From Azolla caroliniana (lineage: Eukaryota; Plantae; Polypodiophyta), in NCBI GenBank assembly GCA_043228905.1, contig JBHGNT010000906.1:1-14044 (forward strand): 14,044 nucleotides of DNA, in the 5' to 3' direction. This document shows, one piece after another, positions 1 through 14,044 of this stretch. A model generated the notes under the pieces. That model saw only the letters and a list, made by a program, of their open reading frames with translations, ran no database searches and had not been told where the DNA came from. Every line of letters begins with the position of its first letter. Within the stretch, counting starts at the first letter, position 1. A program made the translations under genes and the position numbers.

Positions 1-4
1 AGGC

Positions 5-3000
5 TTGATGGCCAACACCCGCTCCGTTCGCCCCATTGGTTTAATCCGCCATCTCGACTTCACACTCAGAGGGCACATGTTCACGATCTCGGCCGTCGTG
101 CTACGACTGGAGACACAAGGCGCCTACCCAATGTTACTAGGTCGACCATGGTTGCATACAGCGAATATCAAGCAACATTGGCAACGCAACATGATCTTGT
201 TCCGAAGAGGAAAGACAAAAGTCTGAATCATCACTGAAGAACGAGTCCCCATCGCCCTCAACACTTCGCCGTTATACGCGGAAGGGGTCCATATGCTCGA
301 CGGGTTGGCCGATGAGGAGGTCGATGACTTCCTAGAGGATCATCCCACGATCATCCCTCTCTTCGAAATCAAGGAAGTCACGGAGGAGTCACCACCCCAA
401 GATGAACCAGATGCAACCACAGTTGCCGAGCTACGTCATGCTCGGGAGGCTTTCGAACGCGAACTCACCATTTCACAACGAGTGAAAGCATCAACCCTGG
501 AAACAATAAACCTCGGTTCGGACGAGAATCCCCGTACGGTACAAATTGCCAATAATCTACCAACCGGCGAACGGGCATGCCTCGTAAAATTACTCACCGA
601 CTACCAGGATGTTTTCGCTTGGTCTTACACCGATATGAAGGGGTTGGATCCTCAATACTACCAACATCAAATTCACATCTTACCCGACACTCGGCCGGTT
701 TAGCAGAGGCGCTACAGGATGAACCCCAACTACACCGCTAAAGTCAAAGAGGAAATTGACAAACTACTCCGAGTGGGCTTCATTTGCCCTGTTAAATGGG
801 CTACATGGTTGAGCCCGATCATAGTGGTCCCAAAAAAGAACGGAAAAATCCGCGTCTGCGTCGACTATCGGAAGCTTAACGCGGCAACAGTCACCGACGG
901 TTTCCCTCTCCCATTCACGGATAGCATCCTCGACACAGTAGCCGGCCACGAATGCTATAGTTTCCTCGACGGGTTCAGCGGCTATAACCAGATAAGAATG
1001 CACCCGGAGGATCAGGAGAAAACCGCTTTCGTCACGGAATGGGGTGTTTTTGTAGCAGAAGTTATGATGTTCGGTCTAAAAACGACGCCGGCTACGTTCT
1101 AGCGCATCATCACTGAAATCTTTCATGACTACATCCTGGCGTTCATGCAAGTCTTTCTCGACGATTTCGCCATGTATGGCCATCGACGGGAACACATGAC
1201 CCAATTACGACTCTGCCTGGACCGATGTCGCCAAGCTCGATTGAGTTTAAACCCGGCGAAATGCGCGTTCTTAGTCACCAGTGGCAACCTTCTCGGCCAC
1301 ATTGTCAGTCAAGAAGGCATCGCTATGGACCCGGATAAAGTAAAGGCAATCCTGAATGCCACCGCACCCTCGAACGCTAAGGCACTAAGCCGTTTTTTGG
1401 GACAGATCCGGTGGCACAACCGAATGATACGACACCTGGCCGATTTCGCGACACCCTTACACGCGGCAGTCCATCGCCTTCCTTTCCAATGGACGTCAGT
1501 CGAGGACACGGCCTATCAGACCCTGAAATGAATGTTGTCACATGCCCCGGTGGTCTAGTCTCCGATTTGGTCCGAACCGTTTCATGTCTTCGTAGATGCT
1601 TCGGACATCGCCATCGGAAGTGCCCTGATGCAATGCACACCCCCAAATTGGTATAGGCCCGTGTACTACGCCAGCCGACGGCTCTCGACCGTGGAAAAGA
1701 ATTACTCCACCACCGAGCGGGAGGCCCTCGGTATGATTTATAGCATCAATCAATTTCGGCATTACCTCTTGGGCCGAAAATTTACCTTTCATGTGGATCA
1801 CTCGGCCCTTCTTTATTTGGTCAATAAACAAGCCCTCACCGGACGGTTGGCTCGGTGGATGCTCCTACTACAAGAGTTTGATTTTCAGATTCAGCATCGA
1901 CCCGGGGTACAACATGCCATCGCCGGCTACTTGAACCGTCTTGAGTCAGGAGAACCGGCGAAAACAACGTACGATGAGCTACCGGACGCCAGCCTATTTA
2001 ACCTGACCACGGTACCAGACGATAACGGAGATGAATGGATCACGGAGATGACCCATTTTCTCACTACCGGTGTACCTCCCGAGCACATGACCCTTGACAC
2101 GAGAAAACGCCTAGCAGTGCGTAGCCGGAATTTTTGCCTCGTCTCAGACATTCTCTACCACAAAGGCTCGGACGGCATATGGCGCCGAGCGATTCGGCAA
2201 TTCGAGAAGAACGTCGTTCTTCGGGAAGCCCACCAGGGAGTAGCTGGGGGACACTACGCCAGGGATTCCACGGCAAGGAAAGTTTGGCAAAGTGGATTAT
2301 GGTGGCTGACAACGAAGAAAGACGCTCACGAGTTTTGCCGGCAGTGCGATTTGTGCCAACGTCAGGGGCAACCAATGGAACAGTCACGGATGCCACACCA
2401 GCCGATTCTTCCGTTGGACCCATTTCAAAAATGGGGTTTGGATTTGGTAAGCCCTTTCAAACCACCCGCGGCCCGAACAGGGAATAGGTATATTATCATT
2501 GCCACGGATTACTGCACCAAATGGGTCGAGGCTAAGGCACTCCGAGATAACACGGCGGCATCCACGGCTAAATTTGTGTACGAGCACCTCTGGTGCCGTT
2601 ACGGATGTCCAATCATATAATACGTGAGCTTACACACCACTACGCGGTGGTGCACAAGAAAAGCACACCATACTACCTGCAGGCGAACGGCTTGGCAGAA
2701 TCGACCAATAAAATCCTCCAAACCATACTGAAGAAGATCGTGAATGAAAACAGGACCGATTGGGATGACAAACTCTAGAGCGTGTTGTGGGCGTATCGTA
2801 CGACTTTCAAAACAAGCATCCAATCGACCCCCTTTCGAATGGCGTTCGGGTTAGAAGCTATAATGCCCGTCGAGTTCCAAGTCCCGAGCCTCCGAGTTCA
2901 AGTCAAAGCACGGCTCCCCAAGGCCGAATCCGAGCAATACCGGCTGGAACAACTCCTCGAACTCGGGGAAGATAGGATAGAGAGTATGGCCCAGCTCGAA

Positions 3001-3393
3001 CAACGCCAACGGCAACGCAAGGCTTTCATGGATCGACATCAACATGGGCTGGAGAAGGAGCTCACCATCAGCAAACCAGTTCTTCTTTTCCAAACACGAC
3101 TCGGGTCAATGCCGGGAAAATTAAGATTTCGCTGGACCGGTCCATTCTGGATTATCGACGAGTTCAACGGGATGTTCCAGCTCGGCACACTCGCCGGCGA
3201 CACGGTCAAAAGATGGGCCAATGGTTTTCGACTTCGACCATATCGAGGGACTACACCACCCAACCCGTTTACAAGACTCGGGAGACCACCACGAAGGATG
3301 CCACGTGTCCCCCTGAATAAGGACTCACCCACCTTCTTGAAATTAATAAAAGTAGTAGTAGGTAGGATTAACCATAGTTTAGCCACTGATTAG
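5..3393 (+). pseudogene. pol: pol polyprotein pseudogene (protease C-terminus, RT, RNase H, integrase)
   Basis: ORF pieces 5..226, 293..703, 719..1102, 1145..1531 and 1628..2620 share one frame, split by stops at 224, 701, 1100, 1529 and 1556. Frameshift at about 2612 and a stop at 2776. Motifs: LLGRPWL (PR); WLSPIIVVPKKNGKIRVCVDYRKLN and FLDD (RT); VFVDASD, NYSTTERE, VDHSAL (RH); H-x7-H..CDLC, WGLD, NGLAE, GPF (INT). Confidence 0.95.
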
Positions 3394-3535
3394 CTACACC
3401 TACACCACCCACCAAGGCACCCACAATTTTAGGAGCACCCCTCGCCACCACTCAGTTAGTACCTATTTAAGCACATGCAAAGCACTAGAAGCCTTCGAAC
3501 GAGAACGACTCACAGCCATCCCCACCAGCCCTCCA

Positions 3536-3838
3536 ATGGCCACAGAGCAGAAAGAAGAACCTCCCAGCAAGGAGATCACGGGCACGACACAGGAGGAACT
3601 TGCCCCGGCCAACAGACATCCCATGGACGCCCACACGGTACCAGAGCCTGTCGAAGTAGAGGTAAGCGCCCACGAACCCACACCCCCACCAGAAGAATCG
3701 GCCGCACCTGAGGCGGACGTCCGAGAAGATATGCAACCCCCGGACCAAACTCAAGCCCCCGCACCGACAGTCCAACCAGACCACCCTGCCACCACCTCGG
3801 ACCCCGAAAGCATCCTCGACATCTTAAAGGAGGAATGA
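3536..3838 (+). CDS. Extra 3' ORF of element A: acidic Pro/Glu/Thr-rich, probably disordered peptide ending SILDILKEE
   Basis: 100-aa ORF between pol and the LTR, with the frame open from 3383. Its C-terminus matches the extra ORFs of elements B and C. It may be the remnant of a longer ORF. Confidence 0.6.
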   Translation: MATEQKEEPPSKEITGTTQEELAPANRHPMDAHTVPEPVEVEVSAHEPTPPPEESAAPEADVREDMQPPDQTQAPAPTVQPDHPATTSDPESILDILKEE

Positions 3839-3893
3839 AACGAGGATCACGCCTAAAAGGCAATTTTTGTAATATTGTTAGTATTTTGTAAGT

Positions 3894-3936
3894 CGTGGGT
3901 CTGACGGACAAGGTCCTGTCCCACGGGCGTGCCAGG
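3894..3936 (+). other. Structured tRNA-3'-end-like module (inverted PBS) at the PPT position, copy A
   Basis: CGTGGG-tctgac-GGAC-aag-GTCC-tgt-CCCACG-ggcgtg-CCA-gg, immediately before the LTR start TGTT at 3937. Confidence 0.8.
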
Positions 3937-4392
3937 TGTTGTCCAGAGGACAGAAATGTAAAATTAGCAAATTAGCAAACGCCGAGTCCGAGTATCACGG
4001 GCCACCGACGGCTCGGCTGTGTATTAGGGGAAAAGTTATTTAAACGAGGACCAGTACCTCAGAGAGGGAGAGAAGAAAACTATAGGCGGAAGTACTAGCT
4101 TAGTCCTTCGTAATTAGATAAACTCGTAAGGTCACCGGCTATAGGCCGTGTTTTGTAATCTTTTCTGTCATAGTAATATATCTGATTTGTGCCTATTTTT
4201 GTTGCATGAGTCTGTGCTTTGATCCATACCTATGAGTTTCACGCCACCACGTCTATCAAGACCTCGCTAGTGTTTTCTCTCTGAGCCCTGTATCTCTCTC
4301 GACGCCTCTGTTACGAGCCTTCACGTACCACGCCCCTGAAGACCAATAGACGCAGATCTATCGAAGATGTTCACCCAAAGGAACGGGTAACA
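3937..4392 (+). repeat. 3' LTR of element A (456 bp)
   Basis: Imperfect inverted ends TGTTGTCC...GGGTAACA, TATA-like TATTTAAA at 4037-4044, and blocks shared with LTR C (GCCGTGT, CACGTACCAC, CAAAGG..TAACA). The partner LTR is not in the window. Confidence 0.75.
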
Positions 4393-4516
4393 CAGTTGAG
4401 CTTGTCCGCTCAACACTCTTTCACCGGCTCCTTGATCTGTGACCCCGGTGGTTCCACCCTGTTTCAACTCGCATGCGTGGAAAACCATAACATATTTGAT
4501 GAACCCAACGTGAAAA

Positions 4517-5163
4517 GGGGTGGCAAAGGAGTTCGAAGATGAGAGGAAGCGAGCTAGCATAGGCAATGACGGTGGCTGTCGAATGCATTGCAAACACTCG
4601 TCAAAGCATCGGTGGCCTTGACAGGACCATCAAGACGATAGTCTGCGCGATTCCTCGAGAGGTACGGCTCTGACGATGGTCGAACCTCGAGGAGTGACTC
4701 CTCGAGAGGTACGGCTTTGATGTCCTGTTACAATTGTCAAAGAGGGATTCATGGAGTGGGTCAAGCTCCCCGGCAAAGGCCAGAACACCGATTCACGCAA
4801 ATCTCGATACTAGACTGGACCGTGCTCGATACGAGCAAGGTCCTACTATTTGTGAAGTTAGTCAACTTGCTCGACCGCAAGAAGCTGGGTCTCCTCTTGG
4901 AGACTGATGAAGGGCTGACAACCGACTGGGCCATAGTTAAAAGAGTTTGGAGCCATTTCGACAAATGGCGCGATTGGAACGACGTCTGAACATCGTCAGG
5001 CAGCCCGGCTACCGGGGGGAGAGAAGAGGAGATCTCGACCCGGTCAGAAGAAACGAGAAGGTGGCTTGAGTCGGGGTTGGTTCCAACCAACGTGGTTGAA
5101 GGACTATCCAGGGGTGCACCTTTGGAGGAGCTGACGAAGACGGTGCGTGATCTCTAGATCGCG
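4517..5163 (+). pseudogene. Degenerate gag-like fragment of a different retrotransposon
   Basis: Frameshifted coding remnants LLERYGF..FMEWV..PGKG, LDTSKVLLFVK..LGLLLETDEGLTTDWAIVKRV and LEELTKTVRDL*IA. The gag call comes from recalled resemblance to moss Gypsy gag and is unverified. The start is approximate. Confidence 0.5.
4649..4722 (+). repeat. Short direct duplication, 47-bp offset
   Basis: TCCTCGAGAGGTACGGCT is identical at 4652-4669 and 4699-4716, with similar flanks. Confidence 0.85.
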
Positions 5164-5199
5164 TTGTCATGAAAATTTTTGACAACGTTGTGAAAATCG

Positions 5200-5718
5200 C
5201 ACAGAAGGTCGGAATGGGTTGGTAAGTCTCTTACTTTATGTTGATGATTTAGTCATCATCGGTACCGACCTAGAGGAAATCGATTGTGCGAAGTCCCAAC
5301 TAGTGGCATCATTCAACATGAAGGATCTAGGGGACCTTAATTACTTCTTTGCTATCGAAGTGGCCCGCACCTCCGAAGGCATACTAATCATCCAACGACA
5401 TTATGTGCTAAGTATGTTCTTCAAGTTCAGGATGACGGAGTGTAAATCCATCACAACTCCTCTGAATAGAAATGTCAAGCTTCACCCCAACTTCGAAACG
5501 ACGTGTGACCCGAAATGGTTCCGACAGATAGTCAGAAGCCTTATATATCTGACAATCACCCGATCAGACCACAACTACCCGGCCGGCTTGATTAGTCAGG
5601 TCATGTCCCAACTGACCACATAGTAGTTTCAATGCACCCAACAAATACTCCACTATGTCAGCGGCATTAAGGACAGAGGGTTGTTGCATCGGATTGGTGT
5701 TGCCAAACAGGTAGTTGG
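5200..5718 (+). pseudogene. Ty1/Copia reverse transcriptase fragment
   Basis: LLLYVDDLVI, FNMKDLGDLNYF, LIYLTITRSD, then after stops at 5621-5626 HYVSGIKDRGLL..KQVVG. It is cut just before the expected YxDADWA RNase H motif. Confidence 0.92.
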
Positions 5719-6250
5719 TGTTATCTCCCTTTGTGGAAGCAACACCTTTGATTCCTTTACCAAAATCAAACCAAGGGAGTTGTGGTACGTGGTGAACACA
5801 ACAAAATACGTGTTGGATTGCTCGACAACCCGTCCGTGTAACGAACATTTAGTGTACTCAGTCGTAGACAAGATCTTAATTCAAGAATTGATAATTACGT
5901 ATTGATCTTAACACAGAGCAGAGTATTGACCCAAAATTATATATGTATTATGATTCCAAAAACATTGTACACGGCTCACGGCCGGAATTATGATAGAAGT
6001 AAATATAGTTATGTATCAGAATATGCTATCTCAGCTAATAAGATCTTCTCTCTCTCCCTTCGTCTTCGTTCTGCTCCACATTTTTATAGTTCTCTTCTTC
6101 TTCTCGCTCTGCGTGCTTTACTCTCCCCTCGTTTTCGGCTGCACGTATTACGGTTGGCTATGTTCTTCGTTAACTTCCTGATTTCAGTTGTCTTTACCTA
6201 CCTTTGGATTCATTTCATGCTTAATTTACGAAATTGGCCCACGGGCAACA
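5719..6250 (-). repeat. 3' LTR of element C (532 bp)
   Basis: Minus strand TGTTGCCC...GAGATAACA, TATAAAAA at 6081-6088 followed by a GA-rich tract, and a 3' end similar to LTR A. Confidence 0.72.
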
Positions 6251-6292
6251 CCCGGCACGCACGTGGGACAGTGCCTTAGCACGTCAAACCCA
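6251..6292 (-). other. Structured tRNA-3'-end-like module, copy C
   Basis: Minus strand TGGG-tttgac-GTGC-taag-GCAC-tgt-CCCAcgtgcgtgCCG-gg, then LTR TGTT. It ends CCG rather than CCA. Confidence 0.75.
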
Positions 6293-6329
6293 AAAAACGA
6301 AAAAGAGTCGTAAAATGGCTATGGTACAC

Positions 6330-6440
6330 TCAGACTTCTCTCAAAATATCGAGGATGCCCTTGGTGGTGGGTTGCACAATTGTGTTTGTTATCGCTAGGG
6401 CCGAACAATGGCCTAACACAGGGTGTCCCCTTGAGAAACT
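6330..6440 (-). pseudogene. C-terminal remnant of the element C extra ORF (..VQPTTKGILDILREV*)
   Basis: Manual translation of the minus strand, with TGA at 6330-6332. Not in the ORF track. Confidence 0.65.
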
Positions 6441-6451
6441 TCACCAAAGGG

Positions 6452-6849
6452 TGTTGCGGTGAGATAGAGTTAGACCGACTATTAATGGAACCCTAATTGG
6501 TTACTAGCGGCAATATCATTAGTCATAATACACACATAGGATAAATTACACTTAGCACAGAACGGTAATTAACAATGATTAAGATATAGAACAACAACAC
6601 TCTATTAATTATCCACCCCTGATTACAATCTAACTGGGCCCTTTTTATAGGTCTCCGGTTTTAGGTACAAACCGGTGCCAACCGGCAACCGGCTACGAAG
6701 CGAGTCCAGATCCAGATCGGCATACCGATTCCGTGTCCGTCCGTTCGCTTCTTAATTCATAATAATTCTATATAAATATATAATCAGCTCCCGGTTATTA
6801 ATTATCCCCTCGTTTCCCATTCTGGACTACCCTTGCCGGCCGGCTAACA
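6452..6849 (-). repeat. 3' LTR of element B (398 bp)
   Basis: Minus strand TGTTAGCCGG...CCGCAACA, and CCTATAAAAAGGG at 6639-6651. The left boundary is less certain (alternative 6424). Confidence 0.7.
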
Positions 6850-6893
6850 CATGGCATGCCCGTGGGACAGTACCTTGTACGTCAAATCCCACG
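6850..6893 (-). other. Structured tRNA-3'-end-like module, copy B
   Basis: Minus strand CGTGGGA-tttgac-GTAC-aag-GTAC-tg-TCCCACG-ggcatg-CCA-tg, then LTR TGTT. Confidence 0.8.
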
Positions 6894-6902
6894 ATCCAGC
6901 CT

Positions 6903-9727
6903 TCATTCATCCTCCAAAATGTCCAGAATGCTCTGATCTAAGGGTTCCAATGGTTCTTCGGGAAGCTGTTCTGTAATTTGTTGTTGTTGTTGTTCCTCCT
7001 ACTGTTCCTGCGGTTGTGGTTGCTCTTCTTGCCACTCCGGCTCCGGTTGTGGCTATTGTTGGTTGACGTCTATTGCCTGCGGCTCCGTCGGTCTGACCGG
7101 CTCTGTATCCATTTCCGACTCGACTAGTCTTACTGACCCTTCCTCCTTTTCCGGCTCTACCGGTCTTAGCGTCTCCTGGTTCGGCTATCCAGTGTTCACT
7201 GGTTCCTGCGGATGATCTTCCTTTAGCGGCTCCTCTTGTGTACTATCTGGTTGGCTTCCCCCAGCTTTAACTAGTGTTTGTTCTGAAGATGGCTCCTCGT
7301 CACTGATGCTAATTGCCGCAGTTTTCTTGGCCACTTCTTGCCGTCGTCGTTCTTGTTCGTACTTCTCGAAACGGAGTTGGTTGTCCAACTGGTCATCATC
7401 CAACTGTGCCACCAACTGGCGTACCACCACCCTCTGCTCATCAACCAAGGATATGAAATCATCCGTCAGTTCCTCTTTTATTGCTTCAATGCTTTCTTTA
7501 TCCAGGATGTAAACTTTGTCGCCCTCTTTCCGCCGGTTCTCCGCATCTGCCCGCAGCAACTGCAGCTCTGCTGCCTGCTTAGCCCACTTCGACCACCACT
7601 GTACTGAGCTTTCTTCCACCAATTGCTTCATTCGATTCCTCCATGCCAGTACGATGTCCCGAATCCGCCCCAGCCCCATCTTCGACTTACTTTCCGCAGC
7701 CTGTTTTTCATCCTTCAATTGTTTGATCAGGCTTGCGGTTGCCACTTCTTGGCTTTTGTAGTGCATGAGTTGGGTCTGATATGTCGTTTGAACGTTGTTC
7801 AAAGTCATTGTAGCACGCTCCGTTTCTACATGGTGTTGCACTTGCAGGTCCAGTCTCGCTTTCGTTGCTGCCGCCAGTTGTTTCGCTACTTCGGCTCCCT
7901 TCGACTGCTCTTCCAGCACTGTTCTCGACAACCGGTTAACTTCCTCCCGGAGTTCTCTGCACTTTTCCTATTGCCGGTCACTTTCGGTAGTCAATTTCTT
8001 GTGATTGGCATCCAAATGCTTATAATCTCGGTGCAGTCGGTCGAAGTCGTCGGTTTTCTGTTTGAGCTTTTGATTGATAAGCCGGCGAGTGCGGTCCTTA
8101 TGGTCTTTTTGTTGCCGGAGCTCTTCTTTGAGGTGTTCAATCTCCACTTCCTCCATCCTCCGGAGTTTCTCTTTTTCTTGCAGGAGTTTGTCTTTCTCTT
8201 CTTTCGGCCAGTCATACACTTGATGACCTCTTCTCAAGCTTTCCTCTATTCAGCGAAGGCCGTCTGTAGAGTTACCGGGGCCACCGGTTTCGATTGATGT
8301 GCTCCTTCTATGACCAACTTGGCCATTTCTGTTCTGGCCTTCTCTATTTCTTCTTCCATGCACCGGATTCTTGATCAGGCCATCTCTAATTCCTCGGTTG
8401 TGGCTAGCAATCGGGCTTCCTGCGCTTTCTCTTCCACTTCTAACTGGCAGACAACACCAGTCAATTGTTCTGCTACCCATCAGAGCCATCGACTGTCGGT
8501 GCCTTGTGGTCATGGGATAGTGTTTTCACTGGTCATGAGCCTACTATTGACGGTTACGTCACATGGCCACTCTGGTTCTAGTTGTTGCAGTTGCGGCGGT
8601 GATGCTGGCAATTCAATGATCGGTTCCTGATTCACCGATATTGCCGTATCCTGGACCGCAGGTTCCGCGATGTCTTGCTGCCGCACTTGCTCCATCCGCG
8701 ATTCTGGTTGAGCCAGTTCTGCCGCCTTCTTAGGTTGTGGCTCCTGAGGGAGGGGTTCCTTTATAGTGTCCTCCGCTAGCCTTGACGTCCCCCCTTCGTG
8801 GCCTTTTTCACTTGTCTGGCGACGCCGTAGCAATGTCTTGGTCGGCTCATCGTCTTGTTGTTCTTCTTCCAGGGTCGTGTTGTTGATTAACTCCGCCAAG
8901 GGGTCCTGCCCCTGCGTTTTCTCCGGTTGTCGTTCCTTCGCCTGAGTAGCCAGGAGTTGCTGTCGTTTGGAAGTTGGTTTGGGGGTCGATTCTGTTGGTC
9001 TTCCCCTCTTTCTTTGTTTCATGGGCTCTACCGGTGGTGCTAACAAAGTGAGCCATTGCACCACTGTTGTCCACATCTTTTTGCCATCTTTTATGAAGAT
9101 GATGGCAGCACTCAGGCCATCGGCAATCATTACCAGCCAATCCACCTGTACTCCCTCGTAGATGGCTATGATCAAACCGGCTCTATTCCTGGGCATCGCC
9201 AGTGGTTAGGGGTATACATGGCCATACTCGTGGAGTACCCAAGCAATTTCCCGAAACAGAAGGTCTTCACCGCCTTGCGTGCGGTATGCCTTGCTGCCCA
9301 GGGAGTATTCCCCAAAATACCTCGTGAGCAGATCCTACGAAGGGTTGTCGATCGAGTAGATCCCCCCTTCCGGTAGGCCGGTCATGGCTTGGATGGCTTC
9401 CTCAGTGATGACCTCCGTGTCGATGTCTTTAACGACATTTTCCGCATCTCCGTGCGGCGATGCTTCGACTATTCGCAAGAATCCCTCTAGACCGTGTTGC
9501 TTCAGCCATTTCTTAGCCGCTTTTGAGAGTACCATGTATTCCATGTCGTCTTCAGAGTCGATAGGTTGTGGTAAGATGGGTGCGCCTGCATGCTATGAGC
9601 GCTCTCACCTGATCACCTGTAATCGCATGTGGACACCAAGATCTCTGTGTTTGCGAAATGAAAGGGACTCTACGCGGCGAAGGTTTTCTTTCTCCATGCG
9701 TGGCGCCTTTTCTTGATTCCCGCGCAT
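6903..9727 (-). pseudogene. Long extra 3' ORF of element B (~940 codons): globular N-terminus, basic NLS-like patch, coiled coil, acidic/Gln-rich tail ending SILDILEDE
   Basis: ATG 9727/9697, 9335..9544 and 8510..9196 share one frame. 7968..8237, 7185..7931 and the tail to TGA 6903-6905 share a second frame. This implies one frameshift near 8200-8250 plus several in-frame stops. KQRKRGRP patch, E/K/Q/R/L-rich helical segment, and (CAA)5 at 6978-6992. Confidence 0.75.
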
Positions 9728-11977
9728 GCAAGTCCTATACTAATATAGCAGTCAGTTGACACGTGGTGCGCCTGTTTTTAAAGGCTTTAATTATCCACCC
9801 ACCACACCTTTTCAAAGTGCCCGTTCGCTCCTCGCCTCTGCATGATGACTTCTTTTTTTCTTTTCTTTTTTTAAATTGAGTTTTAGTTAGCCGGAAGCAC
9901 CGAGTCCGTATCCCGGTTTTTCCCCATCTTCACGTTTGTCGGCCACCTGTTTGTCGTTATCCGGTAACGCCGGCTCTGCCTGACTGTCGGGTATTTCTTT
10001 CCTGCTTCCCACTGTTGTATCAGCCTCCGTCTGCTCAAACAGATTTTGTGGCATAGGTCCACAATATGGTTTTAGTCGAAACCCATTGACCCATTTGCCC
10101 ATTATCTCACCGGCGAGCGTTCCAAGCTGGTATGACCCATTGAATTCCCGCGTTATCCAATACGGTCCAGTCCACCGGAACCGTAGCTTTCTCGGCATCT
10201 GACCCATCCGGGTCTGGAACACCAGTACCAGCTTGCCGATCCCGAACATCTTCTCATTGCCCTTCCGGTGCCGATCAACAAACGCCTTCCTCTGTCACTG
10301 CTCCAGTTCCAACTGCATGAGACTTGCTATCCGATGCTCCTCGAGTTCGCATAATGCGGCTAACCGGATTTTTTCCGATTCCTTTTCACTTAGTCGTTCT
10401 CTAACCTATATCCGCAAACTCGAAACCTAAAATTCGATCGGCATTACTGCTTCAAGCCCAAATGCTAACCAGAATGGTGTTGACCGGATACTTGTTTTGT
10501 ATGTCGTCCGGTATGCCCATTGTGCACTCTATAGCTTGGTGTCCCAATCAGTTCGGTTTTCATTGACGATCTTTCGCAAGATGTTTTGGAGCGTTTTGTT
10601 CGTGGATTCGGCCAGTCCATTGGCCTGTGGATAATAAGGGGCACTACGCTTGTGTACCACGGCATAGAATGTTGTTAAGCTCTCCACTACTTGACCGAGA
10701 AAATGTCCGCCTTGGTCGCTAATTAACTTGATCGGGCATCCATACCGGCACCAGATGTACTCATATAAGAACTTTGTCGTTGATGTCGCAGTGTTGTCCC
10801 ACAAAGCCTTGGCTTCTACCCACTTGGTGCAATAATCGGTGGCGACTATAACATATCTGTTTCCGGTTCTCATTGCGGGAGGTTTAAACGGCCCAACGAA
10901 ATCCAGCCCCCATTTTTGAAAGGGTTCTAAGGGCAGCACCGGTTGGTGAGGCATCCTTGCTTGTTCTGTTGGTTGGCCCATCCACTGACACAAATCACAG
11001 ACTTTCACGTACTGAACCGAGTCCTTTAGTGTCGTCGGCCACCATAGCCCGTTGTGCCATATTTTTCTTGCCGTAGCATCCCCGACATAGTGCCCTCCGG
11101 CAACGCCACAATGCGCTTCTCATAAGATTGTGTCCTTTTTGTCGCTTCGCACAGCTCCATATGCCATCCGCGCCATTGTGGTACAGGGTGTCCTGTAGTA
11201 GACAAAAATGTCGGGTTTGCACCGCGAACCGCTTTCGCTCATCCCGGTTCATCTCCTCTAGTGGGAGTCTCGTGCTTAGGAATTGATGCATGTTGGTTAG
11301 CCATTTGTCTTCGTCGACTACCGTGCTATCGATTGCCGTTTCTGCTGTTACTTTAAACAACTCGGCATCCAGAAACTCATCCGGGACTCCATCACCGGTC
11401 TCGCCGGAATGTAACTGACTCAGGTAATCGGCAGCCGCATGTTGTATTCCCGGCCGGTGATATATTTCAAACTCAAACTCTTGTAGCAACAATGTCCACC
11501 GGGCCAGCTTGTCGATGAGTGATGCCTTTGAGACCAAATAGACTAGCGTTGAGCAGTCGACATGAAATGAGAATTTCTTTCCAAATAAATAGTGTCGGAA
11601 CTTGGTAACACTGTAAATCATCCATAAGGCTTCTCGTTCCGTTGTTGAATAATTTCGTTCTGCTTGGGATAGTTTCCGACTAGCATAATAGACCGGTCGG
11701 TACCATTTCGGTTCCGTCAGTTGCATTTTAAGTGCGTTGTCGATTGCTATGTCGGACGCATCAACGTGTTGAGAACACGACGTTCCTTATGTCCGACGCT
11801 CGGCCACAACCGAGATTCTTTTCATACACAGAAAAAACAGGTAATGAAACGCGACACAAAGGGGAGAAATGGTACACAGGAGGTTTACGTGGAAAACCCC
11901 AAAATAAGGGAAAAAACCACGGCAGCCCACAGGCTGCAAACTGTCACTAAGTAGGAATATACAACAGTGAGTTCACT

Positions 11978-12064
11978 GAGGCAACGACCTCGTGCTCTCA
12001 GATCTTCGCCACAGGCGGCGGTTACAACAGAGGCAACGACCTCGTCTCTCTCTCTCTCTCTCTG
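11978..12064. repeat. 16-bp direct repeat plus (TC)n microsatellite in the solo LTR
   Basis: GAGGCAACGACCTCGT at 11978-11993 and 12030-12045; TC run at 12045-12064. Confidence 0.9.
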
Positions 12065-12237
12065 TACAGTTACGCGCTCTCTCTTCTTCTTGCACCAACA
12101 AGGAAGAATAACGACAACAAAAACAACAACCCTAAAAGTTTGCCCTAAGTCATATTTATACTAATATGACTTTTCGGCTATTTACAAATGTAGCCTCGAT
12201 GGGCTCTCAGAAACATATTTACGAATATGTCTCTTCC

Positions 12238-12359
12238 TCCGGTTCATACCGAGCCTACACCATCCGGCTCTCCGCAGTCGGGTACTCCCCATCTGGTTCA
12301 TACCGGGCCTACACCATCCGGCTCTCCGCAGTCGGGTACTCCGCATCCGGTTCATACCG
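12238..12359. repeat. 54-bp tandem repeat (about 2.3 copies) in the solo-LTR U3
   Basis: Units start at 12238, 12292 and 12346 (TCCGGTTCATACCGAGCCTACACCATCCGGCTCTCCGCAGTCGGGTACTCCCCA). Confidence 0.95.
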
Positions 12360-13096
12360 TTTCGGCCTCGGCCTATCGGCCTCGGTCGAGTTTGTTCGTC
12401 GGCACTGTTCTTCTCCCTTCCCATCCGGAGGGACCTGTCTCCCAACACAACGAACACGTGGAATTCTTTTGACCAGTCCGGTGGTTGTACTACCGGTGCT
12501 TGTGATATCAGTACTTTCAGTGCTCGGTAAGCCTCATCCTCCGTATTTGTCCATTGGAACGGTGTTTGGTGAACCGCGGCATGCAATGGTGTAGCAAGAT
12601 TGGCTAAATACCGGAGCATCCGGCTATGCCACCGGATTTGCCCTAGAAACCGACTCAAAGCTTTGGCCGTGGATGGCGCCGGTGCTTCTAAGATTACTTT
12701 CACCTTATCGGGGTCTACCGCGATCCCGTCCTTGCTGACAAGATGGCCTAGCAATGCACCGCTTGTTACTCCGAACACACACTTTGCTGGATTCAAGCTT
12801 AGCTGATAACTCCTGCATTTCTCGAGACATAGCCGGAGATGTTAGAGATGTTCTCCTTCTCGGCTATACACGGCGAAGTCATCTAGGAATACCTGCATGA
12901 ATGCCGGAATGAACTCGCCAAATATTTCCATGATTATTCGTTGGAAGGTCGTCGGCGCGGTCTTGAGCCCGAACATCATTACCACTGCGACAAAGACTCC
13001 CCATTCGGTGACAAAGGCCATCTTGTCTTGGTCGTTGGGGTGCATCCTAATTTGATTGTAGCCGCTGAAACCATCTAGGAAGCTATACACTTCATG

Positions 13097-13936
13097 CGCA
13101 AGGGTTCCCAGAGTGCTGCTAGGAATATTGCTTTAGCCTCTGCCTCCGGTGGTGCCCGATTGAGTTGATTGTGCATTCGCTGGAATCGGATTACGAATTG
13201 TTGAATGGTTTTCGTAGGTTCCTGCCGTATGGTGTAGAATAGGCCGACCATCTCCCATTGATCTACCTCCTTGTTGAAGAATTGTAAAAATCTGGTTTTT
13301 AAGTCTTCAAACGTCGTGATGGTGTCGGGAGTGTGCATCAAGCGCCATCGCGTTGCTGGTCCTTCCAAGGTCATGCCGAACTCTGCCATCTTCGAGCATT
13401 CTGCTTTGGCGGCGGTCAAGCGTTGCGACACGTGGTTTGCTTCCCATGTTTGCAGAAATGCATAGACATGAGCTTCTACGTTCGGATCATCTCGGTACTT
13501 GGGATATTGCAACAGCATGTCGTCGTCCGGTGTTGAAGGTCTCCCCTCCACTTCTTTTGGTGTCAGAGGTCTTTCCTCCTCTTCTTTCGGTGTCAGAGGT
13601 TTTTCTCCTCTTCTTTCGGTGTCTTATGTGACGATGTCAGAAGTTGGTCCGCCACTTGTCGGTCTAGGGCTTCCAGTTCTGTTAACTTTGGTTCTGGTGT
13701 CGGCAAGGTATCCGACTGCTCGTCCTCCGGTCCGTCTGGGGTATCGTGGCTGCTACAGTAATTTGAATAGGGTTGCATTCACCGTCCGAATCCGATTCGA
13801 AGGCCGAGAATGGTTCTGAATCGCCTCCCCCTATCGCTAGTGCCTGCAGAATGGATTCCGCGTCTCGGAGACTACTCAAGCTGCTTCCTTCGTCCGGTTG
13901 GGAATTTTGTTGCCCGCGGAGTGACTCTGCGGCCAC
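13097..13936 (-). pseudogene. gag: gag of element B (N-terminal and capsid part), frameshifted and C-terminally deleted
   Basis: FGMTLEGPATRW..TTFEDLKTRFLQFF..FYTIRQEPTKTIQQFVIRFQRM is typical retrotransposon gag with a major-homology-like region. It lies upstream of pol. The start is approximate. Confidence 0.82.
13529..13623 (-). repeat. 30-bp coding tandem repeat in gag (TPKEEEERPL-like, about 3.2 copies)
   Basis: Units start at 13529, 13559, 13589 and 13618. The third is 29 bp, which shifts the frame. Confidence 0.9.
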
Positions 13937-14044
13937 TCACCGGATTACTTTCGAAAATGACCGATCCGCACGGATCTCTTCTGCCGCCTATTGGAAAGCC
14001 TCTCGCTTTCGCAATCGTTTGGCAAGTCTTTTTGCTCGCTCCGT

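Follow-up and report, generated by a model that had tools for sequence, protein, structure and literature searches.

A site resembling the 3' half of host tRNA-Arg(UCU) takes the place of the polypurine tract in a group of Azolla LTR retrotransposons and may bind a second tRNA primer

We analysed a 14,044-nucleotide stretch of the Azolla caroliniana genome (contig JBHGNT010000906.1, positions 1 to 14,044), called the window throughout. It comes from a 523-Mb genome and holds a nested set of decayed Ty3/gypsy elements. Three of them, A, B and C, retain a 3' LTR, and each of these LTRs is preceded by a copy of the short module that is our subject. The features of the window are as follows.

2-3393, plus strand: decayed pol of element A, with reverse transcriptase (RT), RNase H and integrase in Ty3/gypsy order
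3487-3838, plus strand: C-terminal remnant of the extra 3' open reading frame (ORF) of element A, mostly deleted compared with relatives
3895-3934, plus strand: copy A of the pre-LTR module, recognized by comparison with host tRNA-Arg(UCU); its minus strand is the putative second primer-binding site (PBS)
3903-3920, plus strand: covarying hairpin of copy A, with an inner 4-bp stem at 3906-3909/3913-3916
3935-3936, plus strand: spacer GG between the CCA of copy A and the LTR (TG or AG in other families)
3937-4392, plus strand: 3' LTR of element A (TG...CA); this LTR occurs twice in the full-length element L032, at 97% identity
5719-6250, minus strand: 3' LTR of element C, matched by L003 (85%) and L040
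6253-6292, minus strand: copy C of the module, with inner stem 6282-6271 and CCG in place of CCA
6387-6849, minus strand: 3' LTR of element B, lower end approximate
6852-6892, minus strand: copy B of the module, with inner stem 6880-6870 and CCA at 6854-6852
6907-9592, minus strand: decayed extra 3' ORF of element B (875-964 aa in intact relatives, mostly without a Pfam match)
9887-13623, minus strand: decayed gag-pol of element B, split by an inserted repeat at ~11780-12450

Family homology stops at 4392, marking the right edge of the element A LTR. Element B is inserted ~90 bases upstream of module C, near the 3' end of element C. A Ty1/copia RT fragment (RVT_2, 5183-5623) lies between elements A and C, and the insertion in the pol of element B (11780-12450) is a dispersed 670-base repeat containing 54-base tandem units, which is frequently nested in this element lineage. 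The extra ORF after pol (window 6907-9592; L097:633-3527; L333:7028-9655) is conserved at 875-964 aa, gives only a weak leucine-zipper match in Pfam and carries a common C-terminal SILDIL-EE motif shortly upstream of the module.

Better-preserved relatives place these elements among Ty3/gypsy retrotransposons, with GAG-RT-RH-INT order between direct LTRs and a target-site duplication (TSD). Like the non-chromovirus OTA elements described in the relevant passages of PMC6317226 and PMC13468544 (Athila; Tat 'zero' without aRH), they have a single gag-pol ORF, RT-RH-INT order, a sense extra ORF after pol, a tRNA-Arg PBS, no chromodomain and no second RNase H. The extra ORF, the non-Met tRNA PBS and the lack of aRH and chromodomain agree with the feature list for OTA/Athila in PMC6317226. 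Pfam scans of three intact polyproteins found a single RNase H region in each, which sets them apart from Tat elements with aRH. By architecture alone, the elements would be OTA-like without aRH or chromodomain. Their named protein homologs, at 37-46% identity, come from liverworts, a conifer, a fern and flowering plants.

Comparison with host tRNAs revealed that window positions 3895-3934 are a sense copy of nucleotides 49-76 of host tRNA-Arg(UCU), CCA included. The copy departs from the tRNA in two ways: 13 or 14 bases (13 in copy A) are inserted between A58 and G59, and one C is missing at the boundary of T-stem and acceptor. Copy A thus reads as the 5' strand of the T-stem (3895-3899), part of the T-loop (3900-3904), the 13-base insert (3905-3917), tRNA positions 59-65 (3918-3924), the acceptor strand minus one base (3925-3931) and CCA (3932-3934). 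CCA does not follow G73 in any of the five host tRNA-Arg(UCU) genes shown, so the source of the module was a mature tRNA. Its tRNA content is confined to nucleotides 49-76. ARAGORN found no tRNA gene in the window, and the module has no cloverleaf, acceptor 5' strand, D arm or anticodon arm. An initial annotation of the window, made from its letters, had noticed a resemblance to a tRNA T-arm and suggested a captured tRNA half; both ideas hold, the resemblance now having a specific match in tRNA-Arg(UCU) and the capture being supported by the match to nucleotides 49-76 and by a CCA that the genes do not encode. That annotation placed the feature at 3894..3925. The hairpin is indeed there, but the conserved unit extends nine bases further, through the CCA at 3932-3934, and the module's location at the expected site of the polypurine tract (PPT) was not mentioned.

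To compare copies, we clustered 149 of them, from the genome and from metagenome contigs that may belong to the same or a related species, into 47 groups. Removing two (one bacterial, one a partial duplicate) and two identical rows and adding one family left 44 aligned real copies. All 44 representatives share the lost base, in a set that was selected for this short form. The tRNA-matching 3' part is strongly constrained: 29 representatives have an identical 17-mer, and 14 of the other 15 differ from it by G>A alone. The T before tRNA position 59 (window 3917) is likewise invariant in 44 of 44, a count to be read with the selection patterns in mind, which largely required T; a T also stands at that place in the joints of the C16 locus described below. 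Elsewhere in the genome, many tRNA-Arg(UCU)-like copies are spaced ~0.6 kb apart in two clusters (G000:C11:693795-703402 and C22:1431692-1504826), which may be tandem tRNA arrays or pseudogenes.

The module is abundant and occupies a fixed position. Its 3' 24-mer has 1,351 matches in the genome, compared with 0 for a reversed control, and from these matches we drew a sample of 60 loci (of the first 61 matches), blind to the hairpin. In the full-length element L032, the motif end CCA-GG directly adjoins the 3' LTR copy. Across the 60 loci the register is constant, with CCA, two nucleotides (GG, TG or AG) and then the TG of the LTR; element ends are backed by LTR pairs and 5-bp TSDs. No purine tract adjoins the 3' LTR in these 60 loci, as would be expected of a PPT-primed element. 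Within 45 nt before the LTR, the longest purine run has a median of 4 and a maximum of 8. No window with 11 purines in 12 positions lies nearer than 48 nt to the LTR, and 39 of the 60 loci have none within 200 nt. The site is present in L097 and L333, which are young: their LTRs are 100% identical and gag-pol is open. Because such elements share the layout without a PPT, it represents the working state of the lineage rather than decay. This is a large, recently active group of elements without a PPT. One family (L011, L026, L101) has a repeat unit of ~425 bases, running from an LTR-like start to the module, and the same module; its members are possibly non-autonomous elements or tandem LTRs.

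A metagenome scan returned at least 120 matches, and 40 of those listed passed a filter for an LTR on the expected side. Two of the 40 were chance matches in bacteria. Seven others (L173, L175, L212, L233, L243, L252, L272) were dropped as ordinary PBSs of other plant elements, read backwards. Viral contigs contained no match to the motif. One hit, L273:15760-15820, belongs to an element of another plant that was mis-binned in a bacterial metagenome-assembled genome; it has 1.65-kb LTRs, a different PBS and 58% identity across RNase H and integrase. Here too an 8-bp hairpin is followed by a tRNA-like end and AG adjoining the 3' LTR, with no PPT. More distant LTR elements from the same scan (L286, L289, L290) have ordinary purine tracts.

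The insert between A58 and G59 forms a hairpin that covaries. In the window, the inner stems reported by the initial annotation are all present: GGAC-AAG-GTCC in copy A (3906-3916, plus strand), GTAC-AAG-GTAC in copy B (6880-6870, minus strand) and GTGC-TAAG-GCAC in copy C (6282-6271, minus strand). A pattern derived from these copies has 62 matches in the genome and 0 for its reversed control. In copy A the stem can be extended by GAC/GTC (3903-3905/3918-3920) across the bulged T at 3917. The whole helix, GAC-NNNN-loop-NNNN-T-GTC, is 97.1% paired across the 44 representatives, and four of its seven pairs have changed on both sides. There are seven inner-stem types (GTAC/GTAC, GGAC/GTCC, GTGC/GCAC, GGGC/GCCC, GCGC/GCGC, AGGC/GCCT and ATGC/GCAT), and in one family, that of L333, the extension has undergone a double change to GCC/GGC. 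The covariation score of 0.231 exceeds that of all 500 shuffles (0.096 +/- 0.010) and of slid partners (at most 0.091), although the 44 rows are related, which inflates the shuffle test, and the score is not a probability. Compensatory swaps and selection on a nucleic-acid hairpin, as first proposed from three copies, are thus borne out in the larger alignment.

Two other elements of that proposal fell away. The TGAC before the stem, taken as invariant, reflects CpG decay common to the three old window copies: among the 60 loci chosen by the 3' 24-mer, the tetramer is CGAC in 50, CAAC in 7, CGAT in 2, CGAG in 1 and TGAC in none. TGAC is a CpG-decayed form of a TTCGA or TCCGA T-loop. The outer stem, described as a kept helix, has 0 compensatory changes among its 4 or 5 pairs. 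Only TGGG/CCCA is left of it in copy C, and it is broken in a young subfamily (AAGGG in 11 of 35 copies of cluster 0). The 84% pairing of this stem in the alignment is an underestimate for the GTGGGA subfamilies, which sit one column off. Tested as a folded T-arm mimic, the module had both-sided change at none of five T-stem pairs in the 44 representatives, in either register. Folded as single strands, the window copies scored no better than shuffles (z +0.5 to -1.8). Folding energies are equal for both strands, and changes on one side of a pair are attributable to C>T and G>A decay, such that neither energies nor wobble pairs assign the hairpin to a strand. Rfam covariance models had no match on the motif at E up to 10, with three weak matches elsewhere, and hammerhead, HDV-like, twister and pistol cores, compared by eye, did not fit.

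The elements also carry a conventional first-strand PBS, and its type varies independently of the second site. The family A PBS is of tRNA-Arg(UCU) type and matches the host form of the tRNA, not the short variant. The family B PBS is of tRNA-Arg(UCG) type, yet family B keeps the UCU-type site before its 3' LTR. That pre-LTR site is present in all 60 sampled loci. Where the 5' LTR could be read as well, its PBS was of Arg(UCG) type in 20 loci and of Arg(UCU) type in 4; for the remaining 36, the stretch examined did not yield a clear 5' LTR and PBS. The PBS lies at a long distance from the LTR end, 5, 6-7 or 11 bases depending on the family, which means that the integrase of these elements already removes more than 2 bases. 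In a family A locus (L114 / L325, G000:C1:14810631-14810703), the PBS runs on through the entire 73-nt complement of tRNA-Arg(UCU), indicating that RT sometimes copies the first-strand primer to its end. Another locus (L356, G000:C4:4077070) joins a family-B-type leader to a PBS that is an 18-nt complement of tRNA-Arg(UCU) rather than of UCG type. The sequence of L356 suggests that the UCU tRNA occurs in such particles and can replace the first-strand primer.

If a host tRNA primed the plus strand at the pre-LTR site, an unremoved primer should leave host tRNA sequence before U3, just as an unremoved PPT does at HIV-1 2-LTR junctions. We searched the genome for a host-type tRNA end followed by two nucleotides and TGTT, and repeated the search with decay allowed. 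These searches returned 8 and 12 matches, respectively, with 0 in controls. Seven of the 12 lie at known LTR starts, in four independent loci. As a further control, we searched for the tRNA-Arg(UCG) end before TGTT, which occurs 3 times, never at an LTR start. The captured pieces carry the base that is missing from the element's own site, and their spacer consists of the family's own two bases. In three loci the piece is exactly 18 nt long, and three loci continue into PBS and gag.

The longest piece, at C2, comprises tRNA nucleotides 20-76 plus TG before a family-B LTR, in three duplicated copies. After one of them come the LTR, a PBS of UCG type, gag and pol, then the short site of the element itself and its 3' LTR. 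The C2 piece reaches into the anticodon and D arms, which are absent from the element. At C20, the piece comes from a second isodecoder and is exactly 18 nt long; a 5' LTR and a UCG-type PBS follow. At C16 (L333, G000:C16:17526865-17537154), TSDs flank an element whose 5' LTR is present three times in tandem; each of its joints consists of the PBS-side spacer, a T, 18 nt of host tRNA and AG. The element's own site departs from the tRNA at 58, 60 and 68, in addition to the lost base. C16 is less diagnostic taken alone, because the first-strand PBS of its family uses the same tRNA. L333 is very young, with LTR copies identical over the 300 bases compared and a 5-bp TSD, and is apparently an integrated concatemer of cDNA ends. 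C3 has 18 nt plus GG at an LTR start in a rearranged locus. These junctions are known from one assembly; two of them were compared with contigs of other sequencing runs, where no bridging piece was listed, as expected for single-copy joints in repeats.

We excluded the other five of the 12 matches (L314, L315, L356, L357, L358) as PBS sides in reverse reading, either ordinary or ambiguous; L356 is a PBS side and L358 ambiguous. L314, L315 and L357, together with L058, had first been taken as left-end junctions or a long-hairpin variant and are better read as PBS sides of another family; a DNA search to orient that family matched a neighbouring repeat and nothing else.

Taken as a whole, the comparisons make it probable that the module is a second PBS, on minus-strand DNA, from which host tRNA-Arg(UCU) primes the plus strand two bases before U3. 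The site is complementary to the host tRNA 3' end over 17 of 18 nucleotides, with one bulge, and ends 2 nt from U3. Identity where the tRNA would pair, combined with free covariation in the insert, fits a second PBS. In the mechanism that we propose, RNase H would remove genome RNA from this stretch of minus-strand DNA, and nucleotides 59-76 of a packaged tRNA would anneal there through 17 base pairs and one bulge. Nucleotides 49-58 may pair beyond the insert, which would then be extruded as a hairpin at the 58/59 boundary in a predicted three-way junction. RT would elongate from the 3'-OH of the CCA. The minus strand would finally copy back into the primer, usually stopping after 18 nt, probably at the modified base m1A58. 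The 18-nt limit of captured pieces fits a stop at this modification. Normally the primer copy would be removed before or at integration, with rare failures giving rise to captured copies. The weakest step is the role of the hairpin, which is likely to maintain access to the site or to place RT and RNase H where the 18-nt duplex ends.

When site and tRNA were cofolded with RNA parameters, here an approximation, the three-way junction formed in four of the five sites shown; the L333 family kept a long intramolecular hairpin. By the same approximation, the median duplex energy was -36.8 kcal/mol with the UCU tRNA versus -18.6 with the UCG tRNA. Several points count against priming by the tRNA. 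The lost base makes a bulge within the primer duplex, and the site of the L333 family departs from the tRNA at three further positions (58, 60 and 68). A template switch by RT during minus-strand synthesis, from the element RNA to a host tRNA annealed there, is another possible origin of the captured pieces; it requires the same duplex without requiring priming.

The element's own RNA might instead be the primer, with the hairpin lifting the stretch off the cDNA so that it is protected from RNase H and cut after the CCA, a structured stand-in for the PPT. A hairpin that covaries, extends over GAC/GTC and has a double change to GCC/GGC would suit this role, as would the equal folding of both strands, and an RNA paired perfectly with its own cDNA would tolerate the lost base. 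Against it, the seven pieces at LTR starts are without exception host-type, and at one locus the piece extends into the anticodon and D arms; compensatory change is absent from the T-stem, and window copies do not fold better than shuffles. We consider this explanation unlikely. The RNase H resistance or processing signal envisaged by the initial annotation survives within it, as a rival only, given that the captured pieces are host-type and not element-type.

Alternatively, the tRNA may bind without normally priming, and mark or protect the end or direct RNase H or integrase, while another RNA fragment primes and captures are template-switch accidents. Ten bases of perfect identity at the CCA end would permit such a switch, read-through of a whole tRNA also occurs on the PBS side (L114), and captures are rare, with four loci against more than 1,300 sites. 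Near U3, however, there is no other candidate primer, and an annealed tRNA would have a free 3'-OH two bases from it. Template switching further predicts tRNA sequence before 3' or lone LTRs, whereas three loci continue into PBS and gag, and none of the captured loci has the element's sense internal region directly upstream. We judge this alternative about equally unlikely.

A packaging signal, ribozyme or RNase P/Z substrate with no role in priming would account for a conserved hairpin in the 3' untranslated region and for the T-loop-like TTCGA. This we regard as very unlikely: Rfam offers no match on the motif, the acceptor 5' strand and other tRNA arms are lacking (0 ARAGORN genes), and the 2-base register, the missing PPT and the junctions would go unexplained. 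Pairing of the site in cis with the element's own PBS, for self-priming (Tf1/Sushi type), circularization or dimerization of the genome RNA, matches the 10-11 bases over which the family A site is the reverse complement of its PBS but is the least probable reading, largely refuted by family B, whose Arg(UCG)-type PBS does not match the site and pairs with it weakly (mostly -8 to -11 kcal/mol) while the site is kept, and disfavoured by family A PBSs that match the host tRNA rather than the short variant.

With a second tRNA primer as the preferred reading, these elements resemble canonical LTR elements in their TG...CA LTRs, 5-bp TSD, tRNA PBS after the 5' LTR and conserved site before U3. They differ in that this site is not purine-rich but is a copy of a tRNA 3' half with a hairpin, and in that the putative primer is a host tRNA acting in trans, not a fragment of genome RNA. 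In the pertinent sections of a review of yeast Ty3 (PMC5371799), the plus-strand primer is an RNase H-resistant PPT and the tRNA acts at the PBS; a passage of a fission-yeast genome paper (10.1101/2022.12.06.519325) likewise gives the PPT as plus-strand primer. The closest parallel in the Ty3 review is the bipartite PBS of Ty1 and Ty3, where acceptor strand and T-arm of the tRNA pair with two loop-separated template segments (PMC5371799). There the template is genome RNA and the product the minus strand, whereas here we propose a minus-strand DNA template and a plus-strand product. HIV-1 2-LTR junctions, as portrayed in part of PMC5618025, retain the unremoved plus-strand primer, a PPT, beside U3 and the last base of the minus-strand primer at the U5 side. 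Our captured junctions similarly retain sequence beside U3, and at the U5 side each C16 joint carries a single additional T; the sequence retained beside U3 is host tRNA, not PPT, and is fixed in a chromosome. PMC6317226 distinguishes three types of primer, each of them for first-strand synthesis, and gives the PPT as a general 3' feature; its account of OTA elements and that in PMC13468544 include no tRNA-like site before the 3' LTR. Within the open-access literature searched, we found no description of a tRNA-primed plus strand or a second PBS.

We further think it likely that the PPT has been replaced outright and that host tRNAs prime both strands, which in family B would be two different arginine tRNAs. 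The second tRNA would anneal around the covarying insert, extruded as a hairpin at m1A58, and traces of this step would survive as fossil tRNA-LTR chimeras; given the layout of L273, the trait may be old and widespread. Among retroviruses and LTR retrotransposons, priming of the plus strand from a PPT is treated as the rule. Should the priming step hold, an abundant and recently active lineage would be an exception to that rule and represent a new form of LTR-element replication. It would demonstrate that RT, RNase H and integrase are able to deal with a tRNA primer at both ends, and element activity would be tied to two host tRNAs, with antisense transcripts as possible targets of tRNA 3' fragments. 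Annotation tools for which a PPT is a requirement or adds to the score would get such elements wrong. Captured-tRNA junctions allow primer identity to be read from a genome assembly alone and make the priming claim testable on short model substrates.
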